Source of the DNA: Acholeplasma laidlawii PG-8A
GTDB lineage: Bacteria > Bacillota_I > Bacilli_A > Acholeplasmatales > Acholeplasmataceae
Length of the DNA stretch: 32,000 nt
NCBI RefSeq assembly: GCF_000018785.1
Contig: NC_010163.1
Span: 180,001 to 212,000, forward strand
Direction: 5' to 3'
The notes beneath the pieces were generated by a model. The model did no database searches, was not told the DNA's origin, and saw nothing but the letters and a program-made list of their open reading frames with translations. Within the stretch, counting starts at the first letter, position 1; each line of letters starts with the position of its first letter. Positions 3,389-32,000 of the stretch are shown in pieces. Position numbers and translations under genes: made by a program.

Positions 3389-4140
3389 AAAAAATATTGA
3401 ATATCTTATTACTCTTAGTATTAATTTTCACCTTAAGTAGCTGTACAGCACTTGAAGCATATGCAGATAATATTAGACCAACTACTTACGCACCAGCTTT
3501 AACAGAATCTGAAGCAGGATTTATCGAGATGTTACCAGATTTGAAACGTGCTGGTATTTCAGTCAATAATCCTACAATTTTAGGTGATGAGACACAAACT
3601 AGAAAAGGTTCTGGTGTGATTATTAAAAAAGAAACTGGTGGGTTAAATACCGTATACTATGCACTGACTACACAATGGGTTGTAGAAAATTCACTAACGG
3701 TGACAATATTCACTGAAAATGGCACAAGTATTTCAGGTCAAGTGTTAAACTCTAAAATAAGTTATGAGGCTGATGAAGATATCGCTTTGATTAGATTCTC
3801 ATCTTCAGAGAATTTACATGTTGTAGAACTCAAAAGAATTGATGAGGGTGTATCACTAGATAATTTAACTATTTTTTCTATAGCAACGCCTATTTCAACA
3901 GCGTATTTAAACTTTGTAACAAACCCTGCGCTCATTATGGGTGTTTATGATAACCGTATTGTACATGGTACAAATTTAAACTTTGGAACCCTTGGTTCAC
4001 CGCTTTATTTAAAATCAACGGGAGAACTTATCGGTATTAATGTGAAATATTCATTTACAGCTGGTGGTCGCCCTGAAGTTTTAATTAATGAAGCGATACA
4101 TATTAATAGGGTGATAGATCTTGTTGAAGGGTACCTATAA
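3385..4140 (+). CDS. Lipoprotein, trypsin-fold (S1C/HtrA-like) paralog lacking catalytic His and Ser (predicted pseudoprotease)
   Basis: Signal peptide plus lipobox LSSC (Cys20). It aligns with the downstream protease: GSGVII...YYALTTQWVV versus GSGLIF...YYVLTNNHVV; DEDIALIRF versus DDIAIVRF; GTLGSPLY versus GNSGGPLF. SD GGAGGAAA at 3373-3380. Confidence 0.8.
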   Translation: MKKILNILLLLVLIFTLSSCTALEAYADNIRPTTYAPALTESEAGFIEMLPDLKRAGISVNNPTILGDETQTRKGSGVIIKKETGGLNTVYYALTTQWVVENSLTVTIFTENGTSISGQVLNSKISYEADEDIALIRFSSSENLHVVELKRIDEGVSLDNLTIFSIATPISTAYLNFVTNPALIMGVYDNRIVHGTNLNFGTLGSPLYLKSTGELIGINVKYSFTAGGRPEVLINEAIHINRVIDLVEGYL

Positions 4141-4144
4141 GTCT

Positions 4145-5233
4145 ATGAAAAAAGTATACGCATTTAGTTTAGTGCTATTACTACTTTTATTAACGAGTTG
4201 CTTGCCTAGTGACATAGCACATCCAATAAGGGATGTGCCAACAGAAGCCGAATTTCAAGCGTTAGTAGAAGATTTAAGTGATAGTACAGTCAATTTATTT
4301 GGCTATTACATGACTTTTGAAGTGTCATTAGGATCAGGGTTAATCTTTGATAGAGAACCTTCAAAAGACGGTATGTATTACTATTATGTTTTAACGAATA
4401 ATCATGTGGTGGAAACCATGACTTATATGAAAGTTAAAACAAATCAAGGTAACATCGAAATTGGTGATATCTACGCTTTTCCACTCTCAGAAACTGATAA
4501 CGATGACATAGCAATTGTTCGTTTTGAATCTAGTTATGAATATCCATTAATTGAAATTAAACCACTAGATACTGAAACAAATACTCACGTTCAATTATCT
4601 GTTGGACAATATGTATTTGGTATAGGTACGCCAGTATCTAAAGATAATTTTAATTTAACAACTAATCTAGGTATTATTTCTGATCTTAATAGCTACTATG
4701 TCAGTCATACAGCAAATATTAATCCAGGTAACTCAGGGGGACCACTATTTAGTTATGATGGTACATTTATTGGTGTCAATACTCAACGTGTTGAAATCAT
4801 TAATGGTGAAACAATTTATTTAGTGGGTGATGCCATCCATGTTAATAAAGTAGCAGAAGTTATTCAAAGAAGATTAGGTAATGTGACACCTAAATTAGGT
4901 ATTATCATCCGTCCATATGATGATTTTGTAAGTATGGAATATGAAGCATATTTTGGTGATAAAGCAGCAGACTTTGATCCTTATGATTATGTACCTAAAA
5001 ATTCTAGTGGTGTTGTAATCATAGAAGTTAATAGTACAAGATCAAGTGCTGGTGTTTTAGAAAGATTTGATTTGGTTCAAAAACTAAATGGTGTTGAGAT
5101 TAAATCAAATGAGGACTTAATTAATGCAATCGGCACACTTCAAGTAGGTAATACTTACACATTTGAAGTGGTTAGATTCAATGAAGATTTACACATATTT
5201 GAAAATCTTGAACTGGAGGTAGTTATCAAATGA
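4145..5233 (+). CDS. HtrA/DegP-like serine protease lipoprotein with C-terminal PDZ domain
   Basis: Signal peptide plus lipobox LTSC. Catalytic triad context TNNHVV (His87), DDIAIVRF (Asp121) and GNSGGPLF (Ser197), numbered from the ATG at 4145. PDZ-like tail SGVVIIEVNSTRSSAGVLERFDLVQKLNGVEIKS. I prefer the ATG at 4145 over the in-frame TTG at 4121 because it starts the signal peptide. Confidence 0.85.
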   Translation: MKKVYAFSLVLLLLLLTSCLPSDIAHPIRDVPTEAEFQALVEDLSDSTVNLFGYYMTFEVSLGSGLIFDREPSKDGMYYYYVLTNNHVVETMTYMKVKTNQGNIEIGDIYAFPLSETDNDDIAIVRFESSYEYPLIEIKPLDTETNTHVQLSVGQYVFGIGTPVSKDNFNLTTNLGIISDLNSYYVSHTANINPGNSGGPLFSYDGTFIGVNTQRVEIINGETIYLVGDAIHVNKVAEVIQRRLGNVTPKLGIIIRPYDDFVSMEYEAYFGDKAADFDPYDYVPKNSSGVVIIEVNSTRSSAGVLERFDLVQKLNGVEIKSNEDLINAIGTLQVGNTYTFEVVRFNEDLHIFENLELEVVIK

Positions 5234-16843: not shown

Positions 16844-17284
16844 ATGAAAATAGGCATTGGCGCAGATCATGCGGGATTTAATAGAAAAACTGAAATCATT
16901 GAGTACTTAACTAAAAAAGGTTATGATGTTGTTGATTTCGGAGCACACTCAGTAGACCGAGTAGATTACCCTGATTATGCAAAAACAGTTTCAGAAGCTG
17001 TTGTAAATAAGGAAGTCGAAGTCGGATTATTAGTATGTGGTACTGGTATTGGTATGAGTATTGCAGCAAATAAAGTCAAAGGTATTAGAGCAGCTCACGT
17101 CTTTGATGAATTAACTGCTAGACTTGCAAGAGAGCATAATCATGCAAATGTGATTGCTTTTGGTGGCAGAAACCAAACAACATCAGAATCAAAAATTATT
17201 GTTGATGCATATTTAAATGCACATGAAGAATCTCGTCATCAACATCGCGTAGACAAGATTGCAGCTATTGAAAATGGTGAGTAA
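16844..17284 (+). CDS. rpiB: Ribose-5-phosphate isomerase B (RpiB/LacA family)
   Basis: 146 aa. MKIGIGADHAGF, LVCGTGIGMSIAANK and EHNHANV. Confidence 0.93.
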   Translation: MKIGIGADHAGFNRKTEIIEYLTKKGYDVVDFGAHSVDRVDYPDYAKTVSEAVVNKEVEVGLLVCGTGIGMSIAANKVKGIRAAHVFDELTARLAREHNHANVIAFGGRNQTTSESKIIVDAYLNAHEESRHQHRVDKIAAIENGE

Positions 17285-25743: not shown

Positions 25744-26280
25744 ATGGGTAAACAAATCAAAATATCCAAGGAACAACGTAAAAAAGGTTTCTTAAATGGA
25801 TTTAAGAATTTTATCATGCGTGGAAACGTTATTGATATGGCAGTGGGTGTAATTGTTGGTGGAGCTTTCGGTAAGATTGTTACAAGTCTTGTCAATGACA
25901 TTATATTACCTCCAATTGGTGTTTTATTAGGCGGTGTGGAGTTTAGAGACTTACAAGCACTGATTCATCAAAAACCAGTTTTAGATGATAATGGTGCACA
26001 AGTCGTGATTGATGGTATTGCACAATTTAATAATGTATATATTCGTTATGGGAATTTAATTCAAATCATTTTAGAATTCTTAATTATTGCATTTTCTATT
26101 TATCTCGTTTTATATATCTTTATAAAACGTAAGGAACAAGAAGAGAAATTTATTGCTGAAGAAAAAGCAAGACTAGAAAAATTAGAAGCTGAAAAAAATC
26201 CTCCAAAACCAGCACCAAAACCAGAAGACATTCAATTGCTAATCGAAATTAGGGATTTACTAAAGAAAAATGAAAAGTAA
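25744..26280 (+). CDS. mscL: Large-conductance mechanosensitive channel MscL (extended variant, 178 aa)
   Basis: RGNVIDMAVGVIVGGAFGKIVTSLVNDIILPPIG is the canonical TM1 region. The C-terminal EDIQLLIEIRDLLKK resembles the MscL C-terminal helix. Confidence 0.93.
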   Translation: MGKQIKISKEQRKKGFLNGFKNFIMRGNVIDMAVGVIVGGAFGKIVTSLVNDIILPPIGVLLGGVEFRDLQALIHQKPVLDDNGAQVVIDGIAQFNNVYIRYGNLIQIILEFLIIAFSIYLVLYIFIKRKEQEEKFIAEEKARLEKLEAEKNPPKPAPKPEDIQLLIEIRDLLKKNEK

Positions 26281-27121
26281 ATTTAAGGTAATCGTCTGCT
26301 CTAACTCTGCAATAGATTATTTAGAGTATGATAAGCAAATTGATATTTTTAGAAGTATGATTCACTTTGGGGATGAATCTTATAACGATTTTATTGATTT
26401 AGATGCTAAAACATTTTATGAGCGCATTAAAAAAGAACCAGATAATATACCTAAGACAAGTTATGTAGCACCAGGCTACATGCTAAATACATTTGATAAA
26501 CTCTACAAAGAAGGGTTCACTGATGTGCTAGTCATTGTCATAGCTAAACCACTTTCAGGTCTTCATGATGCAATTGTTCAATTGTCCAAAGAAACTAAAC
26601 TCAAGGTTCATGTGTATGATTCAAAAACACTTGCATACCCTGAAAGTTATATGGCAATGACTGCACAAAAGATGTTTAATTTAGGCGCTAACCTTAAAGA
26701 GGTTTTAGGTGTTTTAGATTATATAAGAGATCATCATAAAATGTATTTTGCTGTTGATACATTACTATATTTAGTTAAAAATGGTAGGTTATCTAAATTA
26801 AGCGGTACCTTAGGGTCTATCTTAAAAATTAAGCCAGTACTTACCTTATCTAAAGAAGGTAAGGTCGAAACACTAGAAAAAATTAGAACCTCTAAAAAGG
26901 CACTAGAGCGTATTGTAGATCTGTATTTAGAAGATACTAAAGATAAAGATGTTATCACCTTCATATCACATGCACATCATGATGATGGTGTGAAGTTAAT
27001 ATCTGATATGGTACATAGAGTCTACCCAAATAGAGAGATTGTTACCAGTTACTTAACACCGGTTGTGGGTGCACATTGTGGCCCTAAGGCAATTTCTATT
27101 GGATATATTATTAAACAATAA
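26270..27121 (+). CDS. degV: DegV-family fatty-acid-binding protein
   Basis: 283 aa. KVIVCSNSAIDY..., TSYVAPG, SGLHD and HCGPKAISIGY follow the DegV pattern. It overlaps mscL by 11 nt. Confidence 0.88.
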   Translation: MKSKFKVIVCSNSAIDYLEYDKQIDIFRSMIHFGDESYNDFIDLDAKTFYERIKKEPDNIPKTSYVAPGYMLNTFDKLYKEGFTDVLVIVIAKPLSGLHDAIVQLSKETKLKVHVYDSKTLAYPESYMAMTAQKMFNLGANLKEVLGVLDYIRDHHKMYFAVDTLLYLVKNGRLSKLSGTLGSILKIKPVLTLSKEGKVETLEKIRTSKKALERIVDLYLEDTKDKDVITFISHAHHDDGVKLISDMVHRVYPNREIVTSYLTPVVGAHCGPKAISIGYIIKQ

Positions 27122-27134
27122 TAAAATTTTTGTG

Positions 27135-27163
27135 TTGTAAAGTTTTTTGAATTATGATAATAT
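27135..27163 (+). promoter_or_regulatory. Candidate promoter of the aro operon leader (TTGTAA-17 nt-TAATAT with TG)
   Basis: TTGTAA at 27135-27140, a 17-nt spacer, TG at 27155-27156 and TAATAT at 27158-27163. Confidence 0.5.
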
Positions 27164-27183
27164 ACTATCAACATAAGAAAGTT

Positions 27184-27329
27184 GGTCACATTATGTTTAT
27201 AAATCAAGCTTATTACTACTTTTATCAAATGTAAAAGGACTTGCAGCAAAGCGCATTCCTTTTTAAGTTATTAAAAGAAGTTAAGGAATGTGACCCCAGC
27301 ATAAACAATTAATGATTATGACTCCTTAA
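27184..27329 (+). promoter_or_regulatory. Chain of mutually exclusive RNA pairings (anti-antiterminator / antiterminator candidates)
   Basis: AAAAGGA 27233-27239 pairs with TCCTTTT 27257-27263. CATTCCTT 27254-27261 pairs with AAGGAATG 27283-27290. TTAAGGA 27281-27287 pairs with TCCTTAA 27323-27329. GGTCACATT 27184-27192 pairs with AATGTGACC 27287-27295. Confidence 0.5.
27193..27234 (+). CDS. Candidate aromatic leader peptide MFINQAYYYFYQM (13 codons, 4 Tyr + 2 Phe)
   Basis: ATG at 27193, TAT TAC TAC TTT TAT at 27211-27225, and TAA at 27232-27234. It lies in the 5' leader of an aromatic amino acid operon, upstream of alternative hairpins and a terminator. The SD is weak (AAGAAAG at 27175-27181). 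Confidence 0.55.
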   Translation: MFINQAYYYFYQM

Positions 27330-27360
27330 GGGCTACAAACCTTTAAGGAGTTTTTTGTTT
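27321..27360 (+). terminator. Leader (attenuator) intrinsic terminator 27 nt upstream of aroF
   Basis: ACTCCTTAAGG (27321-27331) pairs with CCTTTAAGGAGT (27340-27351): 11 bp with one bulged T and an 8-nt loop. TTTTTTGTTT follows. Confidence 0.75.
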
Positions 27361-27386
27361 CAAAAAATAGAAAGAGAGAAAAAAAG

Positions 27387-28409
27387 ATGATTGTTCAAAT
27401 GAAAAAAGGTGCAACTAAAGATGAAGTTGATCACATACAAAAATATTTAATCAATAAAGGCTTTGGTATTAAAGACGCTTCAAGTGATGAAGTGACACTG
27501 TTTGGTGTTTTAGGTGATGTGAAATCTTTAGATCCTACACAACTACGTGTATTTTCCGGTGTTGAAAATGTGACAAGAATTTCTAGTCCATACAAGTTAG
27601 CTTCAAAAGCATTTAAAAAAGAACCTACCATTATCACTTTAAAAAATGGCGTTGTGATTGGTGGGGATGATTTTGTTGTTATGAGTGGTCCATGTAGTGT
27701 GGAAAGTGAAGAACAACTAAGAATTATTGCTAAAGCAGTTAAAGATAGTGGTTCTAATGTTTTAAGAGGTGGTGTATTTAAACCACGTACTTCACCATAT
27801 GCTTTCCAAGGATTAGGTATTGAAGGTTTAAAAATGATGCGTAAAGTGGCAGATGAATTTGGTATGGCTATCATTACTGAACTTATGGGTACAGAGCATA
27901 TAGATGAATTTGTTAAATACGTAGATATCATTCAGTTAGGTGCAAGAAATATGCAAAACTTTGACCTACTTAAAGCTGTTGGTAAAACAAATATTCCAGT
28001 ACTTCTTAAAAGAGGTTTAAGTGCTACGATTGAAGAGTGGCTCATGAGTGCCGAATACATTATGGCATCCGGTAATGATCAAGTTATCTTATGTGAACGA
28101 GGCATTAGAACTTTCGAAAAATACACAAGAAATACACTGGATATTTCTGCTGTATTAGCAGTGAGAGAACTCTCACACCTACCTGTGATTGTAGACCCTT
28201 CACACGCTGCTGGTAAATGGGAAATGATTGAATCTTTATCGCTAGCTTCACTTGCTGTTGAAGCAGATGGCATTATTGTTGAAGTACACCATGACCCAGA
28301 AAATGCACTATCTGATGGTGCACAAAGTTTAAAACCACATAAGTTTGAACATATGATGGATCGTCTTGAAAAAGCATCTACAGTATTTTCAAAACAACTG
28401 AAACGATGA
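27387..28409 (+). CDS. aroF: 3-deoxy-7-phosphoheptulonate (DAHP) synthase, type I-beta with N-terminal ferredoxin-like regulatory domain
   Basis: 340 aa, collinear with Thermotoga-type DAHPS: MIVQMKKGATKDEV... regulatory domain, then GPCSVES, KPRTSPYAFQGLG, LCERGIRTFE and VDPSH. Confidence 0.93.
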   Translation: MIVQMKKGATKDEVDHIQKYLINKGFGIKDASSDEVTLFGVLGDVKSLDPTQLRVFSGVENVTRISSPYKLASKAFKKEPTIITLKNGVVIGGDDFVVMSGPCSVESEEQLRIIAKAVKDSGSNVLRGGVFKPRTSPYAFQGLGIEGLKMMRKVADEFGMAIITELMGTEHIDEFVKYVDIIQLGARNMQNFDLLKAVGKTNIPVLLKRGLSATIEEWLMSAEYIMASGNDQVILCERGIRTFEKYTRNTLDISAVLAVRELSHLPVIVDPSHAAGKWEMIESLSLASLAVEADGIIVEVHHDPENALSDGAQSLKPHKFEHMMDRLEKASTVFSKQLKR

Positions 28410-29239
28410 AGATATTTATTGTTGGACTTGGTCTTATGGGAGCAAGTTATGCTCAAAAATTAACAAGTGTTGGACACGATGTTTTTGGGTTTGATAAAGA
28501 TCATAACACCAACTTAAAAGCGCTTAATGAAGGTGTTATAAAAGGTTATAATTTAAAGGATATGAAAGATTGTGAACTTGTCATACTTGCTTTATATCCA
28601 AATCAAATATTTGAATTTATCAAATCAAATTTATCTTACTTTGATACACAACTAATAACCGATATCAGCGGTACTAAAACTAAACTTCTAGATGAGGTGT
28701 TAGAATTACTACCTAAATCAATTAATTATGTATCCCATCACCCGATGGCTGGTAGAGAAAAGTCAGGTTATGATCATAAAGATGTAACGATGTTTAAAAA
28801 TGCTAATTTTTTAATCATCGACTCACACCATGCAAAACCACATCACATTGAAACAATTAAAAAACTAGGATTAGATTTAGGATTTAAAAGGCAAATTGTT
28901 TTATCTGCCTATGAACATGATGAACTTATTGCACATACATCCCAGTTAACCCATTTAATTGCAGTATCGTTGATGCTTATGAATAAAAATGAACATACAA
29001 AAGATGCGACTGGAGATTCATTTAGAGATTTAACAAGAATTGCAAATATTAATGAAATCTTATGGACAGAACTCTTTTTAGATAATAAGAACGCTCTTAT
29101 CCAAAAAATAGATGAATTTGTAGATGTTTTAGGTGAACTTAAACATGATATATTAGCCTCAAATGAAGTTATATTGAAAGAAAAGCTTAAAGAATCTAAG
29201 AAAAGGAGAATTAGCTTTGATGAGACAAACACTCGATAA
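28406..29239 (+). CDS. tyrA: Prephenate dehydrogenase
   Basis: N-terminal Rossmann motif IVGLGLMGAS and the SHHPMAG catalytic motif. Coupled to aroF by an ATGA overlap. Confidence 0.9.
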   Translation: MKIFIVGLGLMGASYAQKLTSVGHDVFGFDKDHNTNLKALNEGVIKGYNLKDMKDCELVILALYPNQIFEFIKSNLSYFDTQLITDISGTKTKLLDEVLELLPKSINYVSHHPMAGREKSGYDHKDVTMFKNANFLIIDSHHAKPHHIETIKKLGLDLGFKRQIVLSAYEHDELIAHTSQLTHLIAVSLMLMNKNEHTKDATGDSFRDLTRIANINEILWTELFLDNKNALIQKIDEFVDVLGELKHDILASNEVILKEKLKESKKRRISFDETNTR

Positions 29240-30218
29240 TTATGAAATAGTAGTTAAACAAAATTTGATGAATGATTTGGGTGAGGAAATAACTAGTGTT
29301 TATCCTTATAAAGATATTTTTGTTATTACTGACCATAATGTATTTAAACTATATGAAAACTTATTAACAACGAAGTTAAATATGTTTAATTTAAAATTTG
29401 TAAGTGTTGAACCAGGCGAACAATCAAAATCTTTAAGCACCTACCAAGAAGTTGTTCAAAAATTACTTAAATTAGGTATGAGAAAGAATCATTTACTTAT
29501 TGCCTTAGGTGGTGGTGTAGTAGGAGATTTAGCTGGATTTGTTGCAGCTACTTTATTTAGAGGTGCACCATTTATTCAAATACCAACAACGTTACTAGCG
29601 ATGGTAGATTCATCAATTGGCGGTAAAACTGGTCTAGATTTAAATGAAGGTAAAAATTTAATTGGTGCTTACAAAAATCCACTTAAAGTTTTAATTGATC
29701 CTTCATTTTTAGATACATTACCTAAAGTAGAATATAAAAATGGATTAGCAGAAGTATTAAAACATGGACTCATTGGGGATCCTAAATTATATGAATATTT
29801 AAAAGTAAATGATAAATTAACACTGAATGAAATCAAACGTGCAATTCAAGTCAAAGTGAACATTGTTAAAAAAGATCCGTTTGAACAAAACGAACGTATG
29901 TTCTTAAATTTTGGACATACCTTTGGACATGCAATCGAGCGTCATTATGATTTTGCAATCAAACACGGTGTAGCAATTAGCTATGGTATGTTAATTAGTT
30001 TAGAATTAGGCATTAAAGCAAAGATTACACCAGCACATCTTTTTGATGATGTTAAAAACATTTTATTAAGATTAGAACTAGTTAAAGAACCTTTATTAGA
30101 TAAAAAACAATTTATAGAATATATAGGTTTTGACAAGAAAAACCTAGCGGATGGTTTACGTTTTGTTTATATCAAAAACATAGGTGAACCAATCATTAAG
30201 AAAGGTGTTGAAATATAA
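29220..30218 (+). CDS. aroB: 3-dehydroquinate synthase
   Basis: GGGVVGDLAGFVAA, PTTLLAMVDSSIGGKTG and the His ligands FGHTFGHAIE. The ATG at 29220 lies 11 nt after SD AGGAGA. An in-frame TTG at 29217 is also possible. Confidence 0.93.
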   Translation: MRQTLDNYEIVVKQNLMNDLGEEITSVYPYKDIFVITDHNVFKLYENLLTTKLNMFNLKFVSVEPGEQSKSLSTYQEVVQKLLKLGMRKNHLLIALGGGVVGDLAGFVAATLFRGAPFIQIPTTLLAMVDSSIGGKTGLDLNEGKNLIGAYKNPLKVLIDPSFLDTLPKVEYKNGLAEVLKHGLIGDPKLYEYLKVNDKLTLNEIKRAIQVKVNIVKKDPFEQNERMFLNFGHTFGHAIERHYDFAIKHGVAISYGMLISLELGIKAKITPAHLFDDVKNILLRLELVKEPLLDKKQFIEYIGFDKKNLADGLRFVYIKNIGEPIIKKGVEI

Positions 30219-30219
30219 A

Positions 30220-31461
30220 GTGCTAGAAATTATTCCAACCAATTTATCAGGTGAAGTAAAGATTGTTTCATCTAAATCTTTATCACACCGATATGTACTT
30301 GCAGCAGCTCTTGCACATGGACAATCAAAGATTGATAACATATTAGACTCTGATGATTTAATAGCCACACAAAGCGCTTTAAAAAGTTTAGGTGCAACCA
30401 TTAATCAAGGATTAATTACAGGTGGTAAGGTTCAAAGAGTACATGAAACTATTGATTGTTTTGAGTCTGGTTCTACATTAAGATTTTTAATTCCGGTCGC
30501 AATGCTTCAAGATAAACCTGTGACATTCACGGGTAAAAATCAACTACCATTTCGTACTCAAGAAATGTATGAAAACCTCTTTAAAGAAACTTATCAATTT
30601 GAGCATCCAAAAGATAAGTGGTTACCACTTACTGTAAGTGGTCCACTTAAAGGTGGTACATATCACTTAAGAGGTGATGTAAGTAGCCAGTTTATTACAG
30701 GCTTACTTTATGCTTTACCACTTGCACCAAATGATTCTGAAATTATTTTAACCTCGCACTTAGAATCTGTTGGTTATGTAGATATGACACTCGATGTATT
30801 AGATAAATTTGGTATTAAGATTATTAAAACTGTAAATGGTTATAAGATACCTGGAAACCAACACTATAATCCGGGCAACTACAGTGTAGAAGGTGATTTT
30901 AGTGGGGCAGCATTTTTTGTTGCAGCAGGCTTACTTGCTGGACCAATTCACTTAACTAATTTAAATCACCATAGTTTACAAGGTGATAAAGAAATTATTG
31001 ATCTTGCAGTGAAGATGGGTGGAGATATTACACCCACAAGTGAAGGTTATTTGGTTAAACCATCTAAATTAAAAGGTATTTCTATTGATGTCGGACAAAT
31101 TCCAGATTTAGGTCCGATACTTATGGTACTTGGTGCACTTGCAGAAGGTACTACAATTATTCATAACGCATCTAGATTACGTATTAAAGAATCTGATAGA
31201 TTAAATGCTATGGTAACAAACCTTAAAGCACTTGGTGCAAACATTAAAGAAATAGGGGATACTGTAGAAATTAAAGGTGTTTCTAAACTAAAAGGCGGCG
31301 TTCTAGTTTCAAGTTATAAAGATCATAGAATTGCCATGTCGATGGCGGTTGCCTCCATCATGTGCGAACAACCAATTACACTAGATGATGAGACTGTAGT
31401 GTCTAAAAGTTATCCAAATTTCTTTGAAAGTTTTAAAGCGTTAGGAGGTCAAGTAAAGTGA
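30220..31461 (+). CDS. aroA: 3-phosphoshikimate 1-carboxyvinyltransferase (EPSP synthase)
   Basis: SKSLSHRYVL, GDVSSQFITGLL, RIKESDRL and DHRIAMS. I favour the GTG at 30220, just after the aroB stop and giving the usual N-terminus. The in-frame ATG at 30184 would add 12 aa and overlap aroB. Confidence 0.9.
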   Translation: MLEIIPTNLSGEVKIVSSKSLSHRYVLAAALAHGQSKIDNILDSDDLIATQSALKSLGATINQGLITGGKVQRVHETIDCFESGSTLRFLIPVAMLQDKPVTFTGKNQLPFRTQEMYENLFKETYQFEHPKDKWLPLTVSGPLKGGTYHLRGDVSSQFITGLLYALPLAPNDSEIILTSHLESVGYVDMTLDVLDKFGIKIIKTVNGYKIPGNQHYNPGNYSVEGDFSGAAFFVAAGLLAGPIHLTNLNHHSLQGDKEIIDLAVKMGGDITPTSEGYLVKPSKLKGISIDVGQIPDLGPILMVLGALAEGTTIIHNASRLRIKESDRLNAMVTNLKALGANIKEIGDTVEIKGVSKLKGGVLVSSYKDHRIAMSMAVASIMCEQPITLDDETVVSKSYPNFFESFKALGGQVK

Positions 31462-31712
31462 GTTTAGAACCCTTAAGAAATGAAATTGATAAAGTGGATA
31501 AAGAACTTGTCAAATTATTAGAGCGCCGTTTTGAATTAGTAAAAGAAATTGGCGACTATAAGAAGTTACATAACTTGCCAGTTCTAGATCTAGCAAGAGA
31601 ACAACAAGTACTTCAAAAGAAAAAGGAACAACTCTCCAATAAGGACTTATGGCCTCACTTTGAAAAGTTGTTTCAACATATTATGAATATCTCAAAAGAA
31701 TTAGAAAAATGA
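31458..31712 (+). CDS. Chorismate mutase, small AroQ class
   Basis: 84 aa. LRNEIDKVDKELVKLLERRFELVKEIGDYK...PVLDLAREQQVL is the AroQ helix pattern. The GTG start follows SD AGGAGG and overlaps the aroA stop. Confidence 0.85.
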   Translation: MSLEPLRNEIDKVDKELVKLLERRFELVKEIGDYKKLHNLPVLDLAREQQVLQKKKEQLSNKDLWPHFEKLFQHIMNISKELEK

Positions 31713-32000
31713 AAGTATTTGGATTAATTGGACATCCATTAGGGCACTCTAAGTCGCCTAAATTACATAAAATCATTGCTAGTTATTTTAGTAGACAACT
31801 AGTTTATAAATTATTTGATATGGATCACATCGATAAAGTAAAACCATTGATTGAAGGGTTAAAAAATGGTACATATCATGGTTTTAATGTAACCATTCCA
31901 TATAAGGAAGCAGTGCTTCCCTTTTTGGATATCATAACACCTAAAGCTCAAAAGATAGGTGCAGTAAACACTATCTATTTTAAAGATAATCAAGTCATAG
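31709..32000 (+). CDS. aroE: Shikimate dehydrogenase, N-terminal 97 aa (continues past the window)
   Basis: MKVFGLIGHPLGHSKSPKLH... and GFNVTIPYKE are shikimate dehydrogenase motifs. ATGA overlap with the chorismate mutase stop. Confidence 0.88.
   Translation, partial: MKVFGLIGHPLGHSKSPKLHKIIASYFSRQLVYKLFDMDHIDKVKPLIEGLKNGTYHGFNVTIPYKEAVLPFLDIITPKAQKIGAVNTIYFKDNQVI

Follow-up and report, generated by a model that had tools for sequence, protein, structure and literature searches.

A tyrosine codon-rich leader and candidate ribosome-mediated attenuator upstream of aroF in Acholeplasma laidlawii and its relatives

Introduction

What is the function of the long gap in front of the aroF gene of Acholeplasma laidlawii? 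The window analyzed here is a stretch of 32,000 nucleotides (nt) from strain PG-8A (NC_010163.1, positions 180,001 to 212,000 of the forward strand), and all coordinates without a locus name count from its first letter. Its longest non-coding stretch, as an initial annotation made from the sequence had noted, is the 265-nt gap between degV (26270-27121) and aroF (27387-28409, + strand), the DAHP synthase gene; two seemingly longer gaps hold open reading frames (ORFs) of the size of rpsF, ssb and rpsR. The same annotation proposed that the gap contains a leader-peptide attenuator with a tyrosine bias for the aro operon. Comparative analysis and RNA folding agree with the outline of that proposal: the mini-ORF, the hairpin at its stop codon, the alternative helix that competes with this hairpin and the terminator are kept in 28 leaders. 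We consider it likely, on the basis of this model, that the leader is a ribosome-mediated (leader-peptide) transcription attenuator of aroF-tyrA-aroB-aroA-CM-aroE (CM, chorismate mutase) and that it reads the supply of charged tRNA-Tyr. Since tyrA is the second gene of the operon and each leader carries 2-6 Tyr codons, these are tandem codons for an end product of the pathway.

The element itself is not new. It is uORFC-13-1, which was published in 2021 as a candidate motif found from genome 13, A. laidlawii PG-8A, and was described with 24 unique representatives from Acholeplasma and environmental DNA only, exclusively upstream of aroF (Brewer et al. 2021, RNA Biol 18:2417; PMC8632094). Its described features are -35 and -10 boxes, a ribosome-binding site, a start codon, one further paired substructure and an intrinsic terminator directly downstream (PMC8632094). 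All of them are present at 27135-27361, and the location upstream of aroF in Acholeplasma likewise matches. The text that Brewer et al. devote to the motif proposes control of termination or attenuation by an upstream ORF and ascribes the sensing to phenylalanine; that text mentions no Tyr run and gives no alternative-fold model (PMC8632094).

Results

A mini-ORF with tandem Tyr codons is conserved upstream of aroF

The predicted sensor of the leader consists of two features.

27193-27234, + strand: leader mini-ORF of 13 codons encoding MFINQAYYYFYQM, including the stop codon TAA at 27232-27234.
27211-27225, + strand: candidate regulatory codon run TAT TAC TAC TTT TAT (YYYFY), codons 7-11, with Tyr codons that are kept in relatives.

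Both had been read from the sequence in the initial annotation, and the ATG at 27193, the TAA ending at 27234, the encoded MFINQAYYYFYQM and the five aromatic codons at 27211-27225 are all present as described. Relatives were collected in one scan of species-representative genomes with AroF, which gave 38 loci. In 28 distinct Acholeplasmataceae genomes aroF is preceded by the same leader, and these leaders divide into an Acholeplasma group (8, the window included) and a Mariniplasma-like group (20). The AroF proteins of the window and of A. laidlawii strain 8195 share 96% identity, and the leaders of the two strains are nearly identical. A metagenome scan for diverse relatives returned mostly the same leaders or near-duplicates of them and added no covariation.

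When the regions upstream of aroF in the relatives were compared for an aromatic-rich mini-ORF, the check that the initial annotation had suggested, one with Tyr codons was found in 28 of 28 leaders. It has 13-16 codons, and its N-terminal codons vary while the frame is kept. Each mini-ORF holds two to six Tyr codons (usually 4-6), and the total of 121 is made up of 90 TAT and 31 TAC codons in synonymous exchange. The runs take the forms YYYFY, YYYYY, YYYYYY, YYYAY and YRYYYY, and they are followed by 1-3 codons before the stop. Phe is absent from five of the 28 leader peptides and falls within the run only in part of the Acholeplasma group. The conserved signal is Tyr, and Phe is not part of it.

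The position of the mini-ORF relative to P1, the hairpin that begins at its stop codon, is also held nearly constant. Measured from the first base of the stop codon, P1 starts at a median distance of +1 nt (range -1 to 7) across the 28 leaders; measured from the last Tyr codon, this distance is +10 nt (8-14), and from the first Tyr codon of the run it is +22 nt (18-25). Together with the varying N-terminus, the kept frame and the TAT/TAC exchange, this fixed distance suggests that the mini-ORF behaves as a translated frame.

How surprising is the codon run on its own? A run of at least five aromatic codons on the + strand appears in 0.46% of shuffles of the gap. In all six frames of the window, five aromatic runs are seen where shuffles lead one to expect 1.8, so an aromatic run by itself is weak evidence without its surrounding context. 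The other + strand runs are a second YYYFY at 4176-4190 and a WYWYWY at 17038-17055, which overlap in location with the long ORFs at 4121-5233 and 16844-17284. The sole other exact copy of CATTCCTTTT in the window sits inside a gene and is at chance level, and we rejected it as a second copy of the motif.

Several leaders depart from the common form of the run. Those of the clade formed by loci L014, L016, L018 and L020 (positions ~2830-2965) have only 2-3 Tyr codons, which are broken by the Arg codon CGA (TAT CGA TAT), and L015, L023 and L046 carry Y-R/C-YYYY. In one Mariniplasma lineage (L009, 1-70; L055, 1-164), aroF is 70% identical to the query and the upstream sequence is different, with no mini-ORF or terminator. 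This leaderless aroF indicates that the attenuator has been lost or replaced at least once in the family.

Mutually exclusive pairings in the leader RNA

The leader RNA is predicted to be highly structured. The segment 27165-27365 folds at -46.2 kcal/mol (z = -3.66), and none of 200 shuffles folds as well. Its elements are the following.

27176-27192, + strand: putative ribosome-binding region of the mini-ORF, AGAAAGTTGG, with strand 0, GGTCACATT (27184-27192), the 5' strand of helix P0.
27233-27244, + strand: segment 1, AAAAGGAcuTGC, the 5' arm of P1, which overlaps the stop codon; P1 is found in 28 of 28 leaders.
27253-27263, + strand: segment 2, GCATTCCTTTT, either the 3' arm of P1 or the partner of segment 3; every leader has GCATTCCTTTTT unchanged.
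27281-27299, + strand: segment 3 with its 3' flank, TTAAGGAATGTGACCCCAG, a hub strand with segment 2, strand 0 or the terminator apex as predicted partners.
27300-27320, + strand: hairpin P4 (CATAA...TTATG), the candidate innermost tier of the antiterminator, with arms that differ between leaders yet stay complementary.
27320-27361, + strand: intrinsic terminator from the terminator scan, with its stem at 27320-27352 and its U tract at 27352-27361.

The pairings listed in the initial annotation are complementary in the sequence: AAAAGGA (27233-27239) with TCCTTTT (27257-27263), CATTCCTT (27254-27261) with AAGGAATG (27283-27290), and a long-range 9-bp pair between GGTCACATT (27184-27192) and AATGTGACC (27287-27295). 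P1, which joins segments 1 and 2 (AAAAGGAcuTGC with GCAuTCCTTTT), has an energy of -8 to -12 kcal/mol in 28 of 28 leaders, and the 1:2 duplex averages -10.1 kcal/mol over the family (z -2.8 against shuffles). The competing 2:3 helix is CATTCCTT:AAGGAATG in the window and GGCaTTCCTT:AAGGAAcaGCC in the Mariniplasma-like group; its duplex energy is -13.9 kcal/mol in the window, with a family mean of -12.2 (z -3.4), and 96% of alignment cells pair. In segment 3 and its flank, AAGGAA and A(C/G)CCAA show little or no variation across the leaders. From its overlap with the stop codon, we predict that segment 1 would be covered by a ribosome whose A site holds that codon.

The terminator was also part of the initial annotation, and the scanner places it at 27320-27352 with 13 pairs followed by TTTTGTTT, where 0.4 such terminators are expected by chance. 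Its probability is 0.98 in the window fold, and its duplex has a family mean of -13.0 kcal/mol (z -5.4 against shuffles). It is conserved with a stem sequence that differs between the two leader groups. P1, the 2:3 helix and the terminator pair in 96-100% of cells of the 20-sequence Mariniplasma-like alignment, and for P1 all cells of that group pair.

The long-range helix P0 (27184-27192 with 27287-27295) has an energy of -13.6 kcal/mol (z = -3.6) and a probability of 0.92 in the untranslated window leader. A compensatory change, GGTAACAT:ATGTTACC, is found in L004, and register variants occur in L007 and L028. The pairing between the ribosome-binding region and segment 3 is stronger in L014, L018 and L020 (-11.5 to -13.5 kcal/mol), and in L016 it reaches -8.0 kcal/mol.

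The arms of P4 occur in the versions CATAAAA:TTTTATG, ATGAG:CTCAT, AGTCA:TGACT and ATGA:TCAT. As an independent hairpin P4 was rejected, with energies of -2.7 to -4.7 kcal/mol in the Acholeplasma group and about 0 alone in the other group. Because it has almost no stability alone in the Mariniplasma-like group, P4 matters only as the inner tier of the antiterminator described below.

Some of these strands also resemble ribosomal sequences. In all leaders, the pyrimidine strands (CAUUCCUUUUU, CUCCUU/AUCCUU; the set at 27233-27263, 27283-27288 and 27321-27351) are similar to the 16S rRNA 3' tail, and the purine strands AAAGGA, AAGGAA and AAGGAG are like Shine-Dalgarno sequences, the first of them lying exactly at the stop codon of the mini-ORF. 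It is possible that a ribosome or 30S subunit binds these strands, for example in a way that holds the terminating ribosome on segment 1.

A candidate three-tier antiterminator

Which strands would prevent the terminator from forming? The initial annotation proposed that, with P1 formed, TTAAGGA (27281-27287) pairs with TCCTTAA (27323-27329) over 7 bp and that this helix is the antiterminator. The complementarity of the two strands is real, and the role assigned to it is not supported. In favor of the pairing, AAGGA of segment 3 and TCCTT of the terminator 5' arm are invariant in all leaders, with 93% of cells pairing, and TCCTT is unchanged even where its terminator partner becomes G (13 U-G against 7 U-A), which hints at a second constraint on this strand. 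However, its energy is only -7.6 kcal/mol in the window and averages -6.6 over the family (z = -0.8), no better than shuffles, and outside the AAGGA core it is not kept, so that 5 bp are left in most relatives. Its ensemble probability is at most 0.07 under every ribosome mask and transcript length that we tried, and folds in which it was forced are several kcal/mol less stable than those with the alternative antiterminator. On the evidence of its duplex energy, the comparison with shuffles, the masked folds and the forced folds, we rejected it as the main antiterminator, and we consider the exact chain of the initial annotation unlikely.

An alternative was found by folding the RNA 3' of P1 with the distal 3' arm of the terminator unavailable. 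The MAFFT register is off by one base for the L014, L016, L018 and L020 clade, and the antiterminator was therefore judged by per-sequence folds rather than by alignment columns. A three-tier stem appears in 28 of 28 leaders, in which segment 3 and its flank pair with the terminator apex, its loop and the start of its 3' arm. In the outer tier, AAGG (27283-27286) of the window pairs with CCTT (27340-27343), where the terminator loop ends and the 3' arm begins; other leaders have AGGAAC:GTTCCT, AGGACA:TGTCCT, AGGAGCC:GGTTCCT or AAGGAAT:ATTCCTT. The middle tier is TGTG (27289-27292) with TACA (27334-27337) and CCC (27294-27296) with GGG (27330-27332) in the window, and CCAA:TTGG in the other group. 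A further window pairing joins 27298-27299 to 27322-27323, and the inner tier is P4. Terminator loops always carry ACA opposite TGT. If this stem forms, it would account for three features: why A(C/G)CCAA is invariant downstream of segment 3, why P4 is conserved and why the loop carries ACA opposite TGT.

In the Mariniplasma-like group the antiterminator and the terminator are balanced, both at about -12 to -13 kcal/mol. Against shuffles of its own 5' strand the antiterminator has a mean z of -1.85, and on average 9% of shuffles are as good. The three-tier stem is the better supported of the two candidates. It is not established as the antiterminator, and from the modeled folds we would give it about an even chance.

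Folding with the ribosome at defined positions

The preferred reading of these pairings is the following. When Tyr is plentiful, the ribosome would reach the stop codon, cover segment 1 and melt P1. Segment 2, GCAUUCCUU, would then pair with segment 3, AAGGAAUG, the terminator at 27320-27352 would form and transcription would stop. When Tyr is scarce, the ribosome would stall on the Tyr codons 10-22 nt before P1, which would persist and hold segment 2. The free segment 3 and its flank could then build the antiterminator around P4 (AAGG:CCUU, UGUG:UACA, CCC:GGG) and allow read-through. If the leader is not translated, the ribosome-binding region GGUCACAUU may pair with the flank of segment 3 as P0 and block the antiterminator, so that P0, P1 and the terminator together would give a default off state.

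We modeled each ribosome position by folding only the RNA 3' of the ribosome, with its leading edge placed 12 nt downstream of the first A-site nucleotide, in the 28 leaders. With the ribosome at the first Tyr codon and the antiterminator just complete, the mean probability is 0.81 for P1 and 0.80 for the antiterminator, which exceeds 0.5 in 26 of the leaders. Moving the ribosome to the stop codon at the same transcript length changes the means to 0.70 for the 2:3 helix and 0.25 for the antiterminator (below 0.35 in 22 of 28). At full length, the terminator has a mean probability of 0.98 with the ribosome at the stop codon, where it is above 0.9 in all 28, and of 0.62 with the ribosome at the first Tyr codon, where it is below 0.5 in 11 leaders, all of them Mariniplasma-like. 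In the whole leader with no ribosome, the means are 0.96 for the terminator and 0.02 for the antiterminator.

The flip from P1 to the 2:3 helix when a ribosome masks the stop codon, predicted in the initial annotation, is thus reproduced in silico, and the spacing of P1 from the stop and Tyr codons fits the proposed masking geometry. Its further claim, that a stalled ribosome leaves P1 free to form, agrees with the mean of the 28 leaders. It does not hold for the window at equilibrium, and the partner strand that had been proposed for segment 3 is not supported.

The strand that would lock the leader off differs between the groups. In most of the Mariniplasma-like group it is (U)GGCUG, formed by the codons directly before the Tyr run, which pairs with CAGCC in the segment 3 flank (-8 to -12 kcal/mol, z -2 to -5). 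A ribosome that stalls on the Tyr codons would have this strand inside its footprint, as in the classical arrangement. In Acholeplasma the predicted lock strand is the ribosome-binding site of the mini-ORF.

We put forward only tentatively, and at somewhat less than even chances, the more specific proposal that this is a dedicated sensor of Tyr rather than Phe in which a stall would preserve P1, a terminating ribosome would melt P1 and a third strand would keep the leader off by default when it is not translated. The melting step follows from the position of the stop codon inside the 5' arm of P1.

Observations that weigh against the attenuation model

Several results count against the switch as drawn. 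In the A. laidlawii leader itself the antiterminator has an energy of -11.7 kcal/mol and the terminator -18.7, so the terminator is much stronger, and the antiterminator taken alone is not significant (z = -0.35, with 33% of shuffles as good). Its pairs were defined from constrained folds, which is partly circular. The window and L028 are the exceptions to the folding results above, because in them the 2:3 helix wins at equilibrium at any ribosome position; with a stalled ribosome, P1 has a probability of 0.11 and the antiterminator of 0.19 in the window, and the switch is not seen. Read-through in A. laidlawii must consequently rely on P1 forming first and persisting, that is, on kinetic trapping. 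From a rough estimate of its stability, it is plausible that P1 opens on a time scale in the same range as polymerase transit over the ~65 nt from segment 3 to the U tract.

A second difficulty is that in the Acholeplasma group a ribosome stalled at codons 7-11 would not cover strand 0 (27184-27192 in the window), which lies just beyond its footprint. P0 could therefore form during the stall and cause termination unless something else, such as an initiating or queued ribosome or a 30S subunit at the start site, kept strand 0 from pairing. Finally, P1, the 2:3 helix and the terminator have no two-sided covariation in the 20-sequence group, where the strands are almost invariant and the only variation is A or G opposite an unchanging U. 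With strands this uniform, covariation neither supports nor refutes these helices.

Other explanations for the leader

Could the leader instead be an RNA that binds a ligand or a protein, with an incidental mini-ORF? In low-GC Gram-positive bacteria, aromatic genes are often controlled by T-box or protein-mediated attenuation, and several strands of the leader are highly conserved, with the AAGGA motif present three times, as might be expected of a riboswitch, a T-box variant or a TRAP- or CsrA-like target at AAGGA repeats. However, the Rfam scan that the initial annotation had suggested as a way to exclude T-box (RF00230) and other known leaders gave no match. At gathering scores no family was found in the whole window or in seven related loci, with T-box and the Trp, His, Leu, Thr, Phe and leu/phe leaders included, and a permissive scan of 27050-27450 with E up to 10 returned only noise and no T-box. 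The loops and spacers vary in length and sequence and contain no conserved pocket, every conserved stretch is explained by the alternative pairings, and the ORF frame, the Tyr codons and the stop position are kept in 28 genomes. We judge a binding RNA to be very unlikely.

Phenylalanine sensing, as in the text of Brewer et al., could draw on a TTT at codon 2 in many leaders and on the single Phe codon in the run of the window and four relatives. Set against these are the five of 28 leader peptides that lack Phe, the presence of Tyr in all of them and the tyrA gene in the operon. The conserved T run, CCTTTTT, belongs to the 3' arm of P1 and is located beyond the stop codon. That Phe is the signal is highly improbable on this evidence.

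The nascent YYYxY peptide might also act as a TnaC-like arrest peptide that senses free tyrosine rather than a shortage of charged tRNA. Its motif is conserved, with exactly 1-3 codons after the last Tyr. Yet conservation does not extend to the residues on either side of the run, hungry-codon control is recognizable by just such tandem end-product codons, and arrest by free Tyr would turn a biosynthetic operon on at Tyr abundance, which is the wrong logic. This explanation appears extremely improbable.

The weakest proposal, that the hairpin only terminates degV transcripts and that the mini-ORF arose by chance in an AT-rich spacer, can point to the lack of a degV terminator before 27320 and to the aromatic runs within ordinary window genes (5 against 1.8), but it has a negligible chance of being correct and is rejected by comparative gene context, because the leader and terminator accompany aroF behind a different, divergent gene, only 35 nt separate the terminator from aroF, and a run with a chance of 0.0046 recurs in 28 genomes.

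Promoter, operon and neighboring genes

The remaining features of the locus are the predicted promoter and the operon.

27135-27140, + strand: -35-like hexamer TTGTAA, assigned from sequence; a TTGT-type -35 box is found at equal spacing in relatives.
27155-27163, + strand: extended -10 element TGaTAATAT, assigned from sequence; TGATAATAT, TGATAGTAT or TGATACTCT occurs at the 5' edge of all leaders.
27387-32000, + strand: regulated operon aroF-tyrA-aroB-aroA-CM-aroE, from NCBIfam and Pfam; aroE is cut off by the window end.

The promoter of the initial annotation (TTGTAA at 27135, a 17-nt spacer, TAATAT at 27158 and TG at 27155-27156) is present in the window and kept in relatives, with a modest match to the consensus. 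The promoter scanner does not list it above its threshold; 8 of 12 consensus positions match. Transcription would start near 27170. The AGAAAGTTGG region is the putative ribosome-binding site of the mini-ORF because it resembles the AGAAAGAGAG of aroF itself, and the mini-ORF of the Mariniplasma-like group is preceded by A(A/G)GGTGAT in the place of AGAAAGTTGG.

The genes after aroF are, in order, tyrA, aroB, aroA, a monofunctional chorismate mutase gene and the start of aroE, each identified by NCBIfam and Pfam matches. Because the terminator stands only 35 nt from aroF, the gene must be transcribed through it. The terminator scan found no terminator of degV itself between its end (27121) and 27320, and degV transcripts therefore probably run into the aroF leader, where they would end at, or be regulated by, the same terminator. 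This terminator may thus also serve to end degV transcripts.

The gene upstream of the leader is degV in the window and a divergent PadR-like gene in the Mariniplasma-like group. Since the leader and terminator stay with aroF despite this difference, the terminator belongs to the aroF leader. At L026 (2350-2740) and most Mariniplasma-like loci, the divergent gene encodes a 106-amino-acid PadR-family protein (Pfam PF03551, E = 4e-17). In the intergenic region beside it, two TGTG-N5-CACA palindromes (TGTGTTTTACACA, TGTGCAAAACACA) flank a TATAAT box, and their high conservation between species makes them a likely operator pair.

A different aromatic upstream ORF in other Bacillota

In metagenome-assembled genomes of Limnochordia and other Bacillota, a different and far longer upstream ORF of 45-59 codons stands before aroF (L031, 2744-2970; L032, 1771-1975; L033, 2753-2966; L034, 2728-2972; also L060). 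Its conserved core is dense in all three aromatic residues (e.g. FYFSWGYYFFSAGYYFW). A conserved -10 box, CTATATAAT, precedes the ORF, and a conserved terminator, GGAGACTTTTAG...AGTCTC with a T run, follows it. Near the 3' end of the ORF, TTCTAAGAG looks complementary to the terminator strand CTTTTAGAA and may be an antiterminator strand. This leader has no Rfam match and may be a separate, undescribed aromatic leader-peptide attenuator.

Discussion

What, then, does the present analysis add to uORFC-13-1? The additions are the Tyr signal, the geometry of the stop codon and P1, the helices 2:3 and P0, a three-state model that includes a candidate antiterminator, and the wider occurrence in the Mariniplasma-like group, and they are refinements of the published candidate. 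The motif is not in Rfam 15. A literature search for follow-up on the motif and for leader peptides with Tyr codons returned only the 2021 paper and the aroR case of Corynebacterium glutamicum, and no later citation of the motif name.

Classical attenuators terminate by default when they are not translated, and the his leader is a multi-strand chain. Like trpL, pheL and hisL, the window leader has a short ORF with a series of end-product codons, hairpins that exclude one another, a terminator and, as predicted, default termination without translation, and the more than four strands of its chain are reminiscent of the his leader. It differs from trp and phe in its predicted logic: there the stalled ribosome masks the first strand, whereas here a stall would leave P1 intact and the terminating ribosome would melt it, which adds one more pairing layer. 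The T-box (RF00230) is likewise a leader RNA with a competing terminator and antiterminator that reads tRNA charging. Unlike a T-box, the window leader has no specifier loop or T-box sequence, and its sensing would act through a translating ribosome.

The closest studied analogue is aroR of C. glutamicum, a Phe-Tyr-Phe leader peptide upstream of aroF that responds to Phe (Neshat et al. 2014, as summarised in PMC11802643). In both systems a leader peptide with aromatic codons attenuates, or is predicted to attenuate, an operon whose first gene is aroF, for DAHP synthase. However, aroR belongs to a different phylum, responds to Phe and has no evident sequence relationship to the leaders described here, which mostly have 4-6 Tyr codons.

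The initial annotation had called leader-peptide attenuation unusual in this type of genome, a statement that is only partly true given that such systems have been predicted or studied in other Firmicutes and that this very element was published in 2021. His-leader attenuators are predicted in several Firmicutes, including Erysipelotrichales (PMC9413887), and the ilv-leu leader peptide of Staphylococcus aureus has been the subject of an experimental study (PMC5794164). These systems serve other amino acids with other sequences, and they include relatives of the Mollicutes lineage. Leader-peptide attenuation therefore extends beyond Proteobacteria and Actinobacteria.

In genome annotations, the 265-nt gap that precedes aroF in Acholeplasma should be read as a regulatory leader with a predicted translated mini-ORF, neither an empty spacer nor merely a degV terminator. 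The published reading of uORFC-13-1 as a Phe sensor should probably become one of Tyr. With a length of ~185 nt and clear predicted states, the leader is a compact system for relating ribosome position to RNA fold, and its two natural versions are usefully different, with terminator and antiterminator about equal in energy in the Mariniplasma-like group and the terminator dominant in A. laidlawii.

Leader-peptide attenuation has been known since the 1970s, and the leader adds no new category, being an instance, reported in 2021, of a kind of mechanism long known. The Mollicutes lineage is usually thought to be poor in regulation, and this leader would extend leader-peptide attenuation into it. 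Judging from the literature searched, its confirmation would make it the first Tyr-specific leader-peptide attenuator to be worked out and the first in the Mollicutes lineage.

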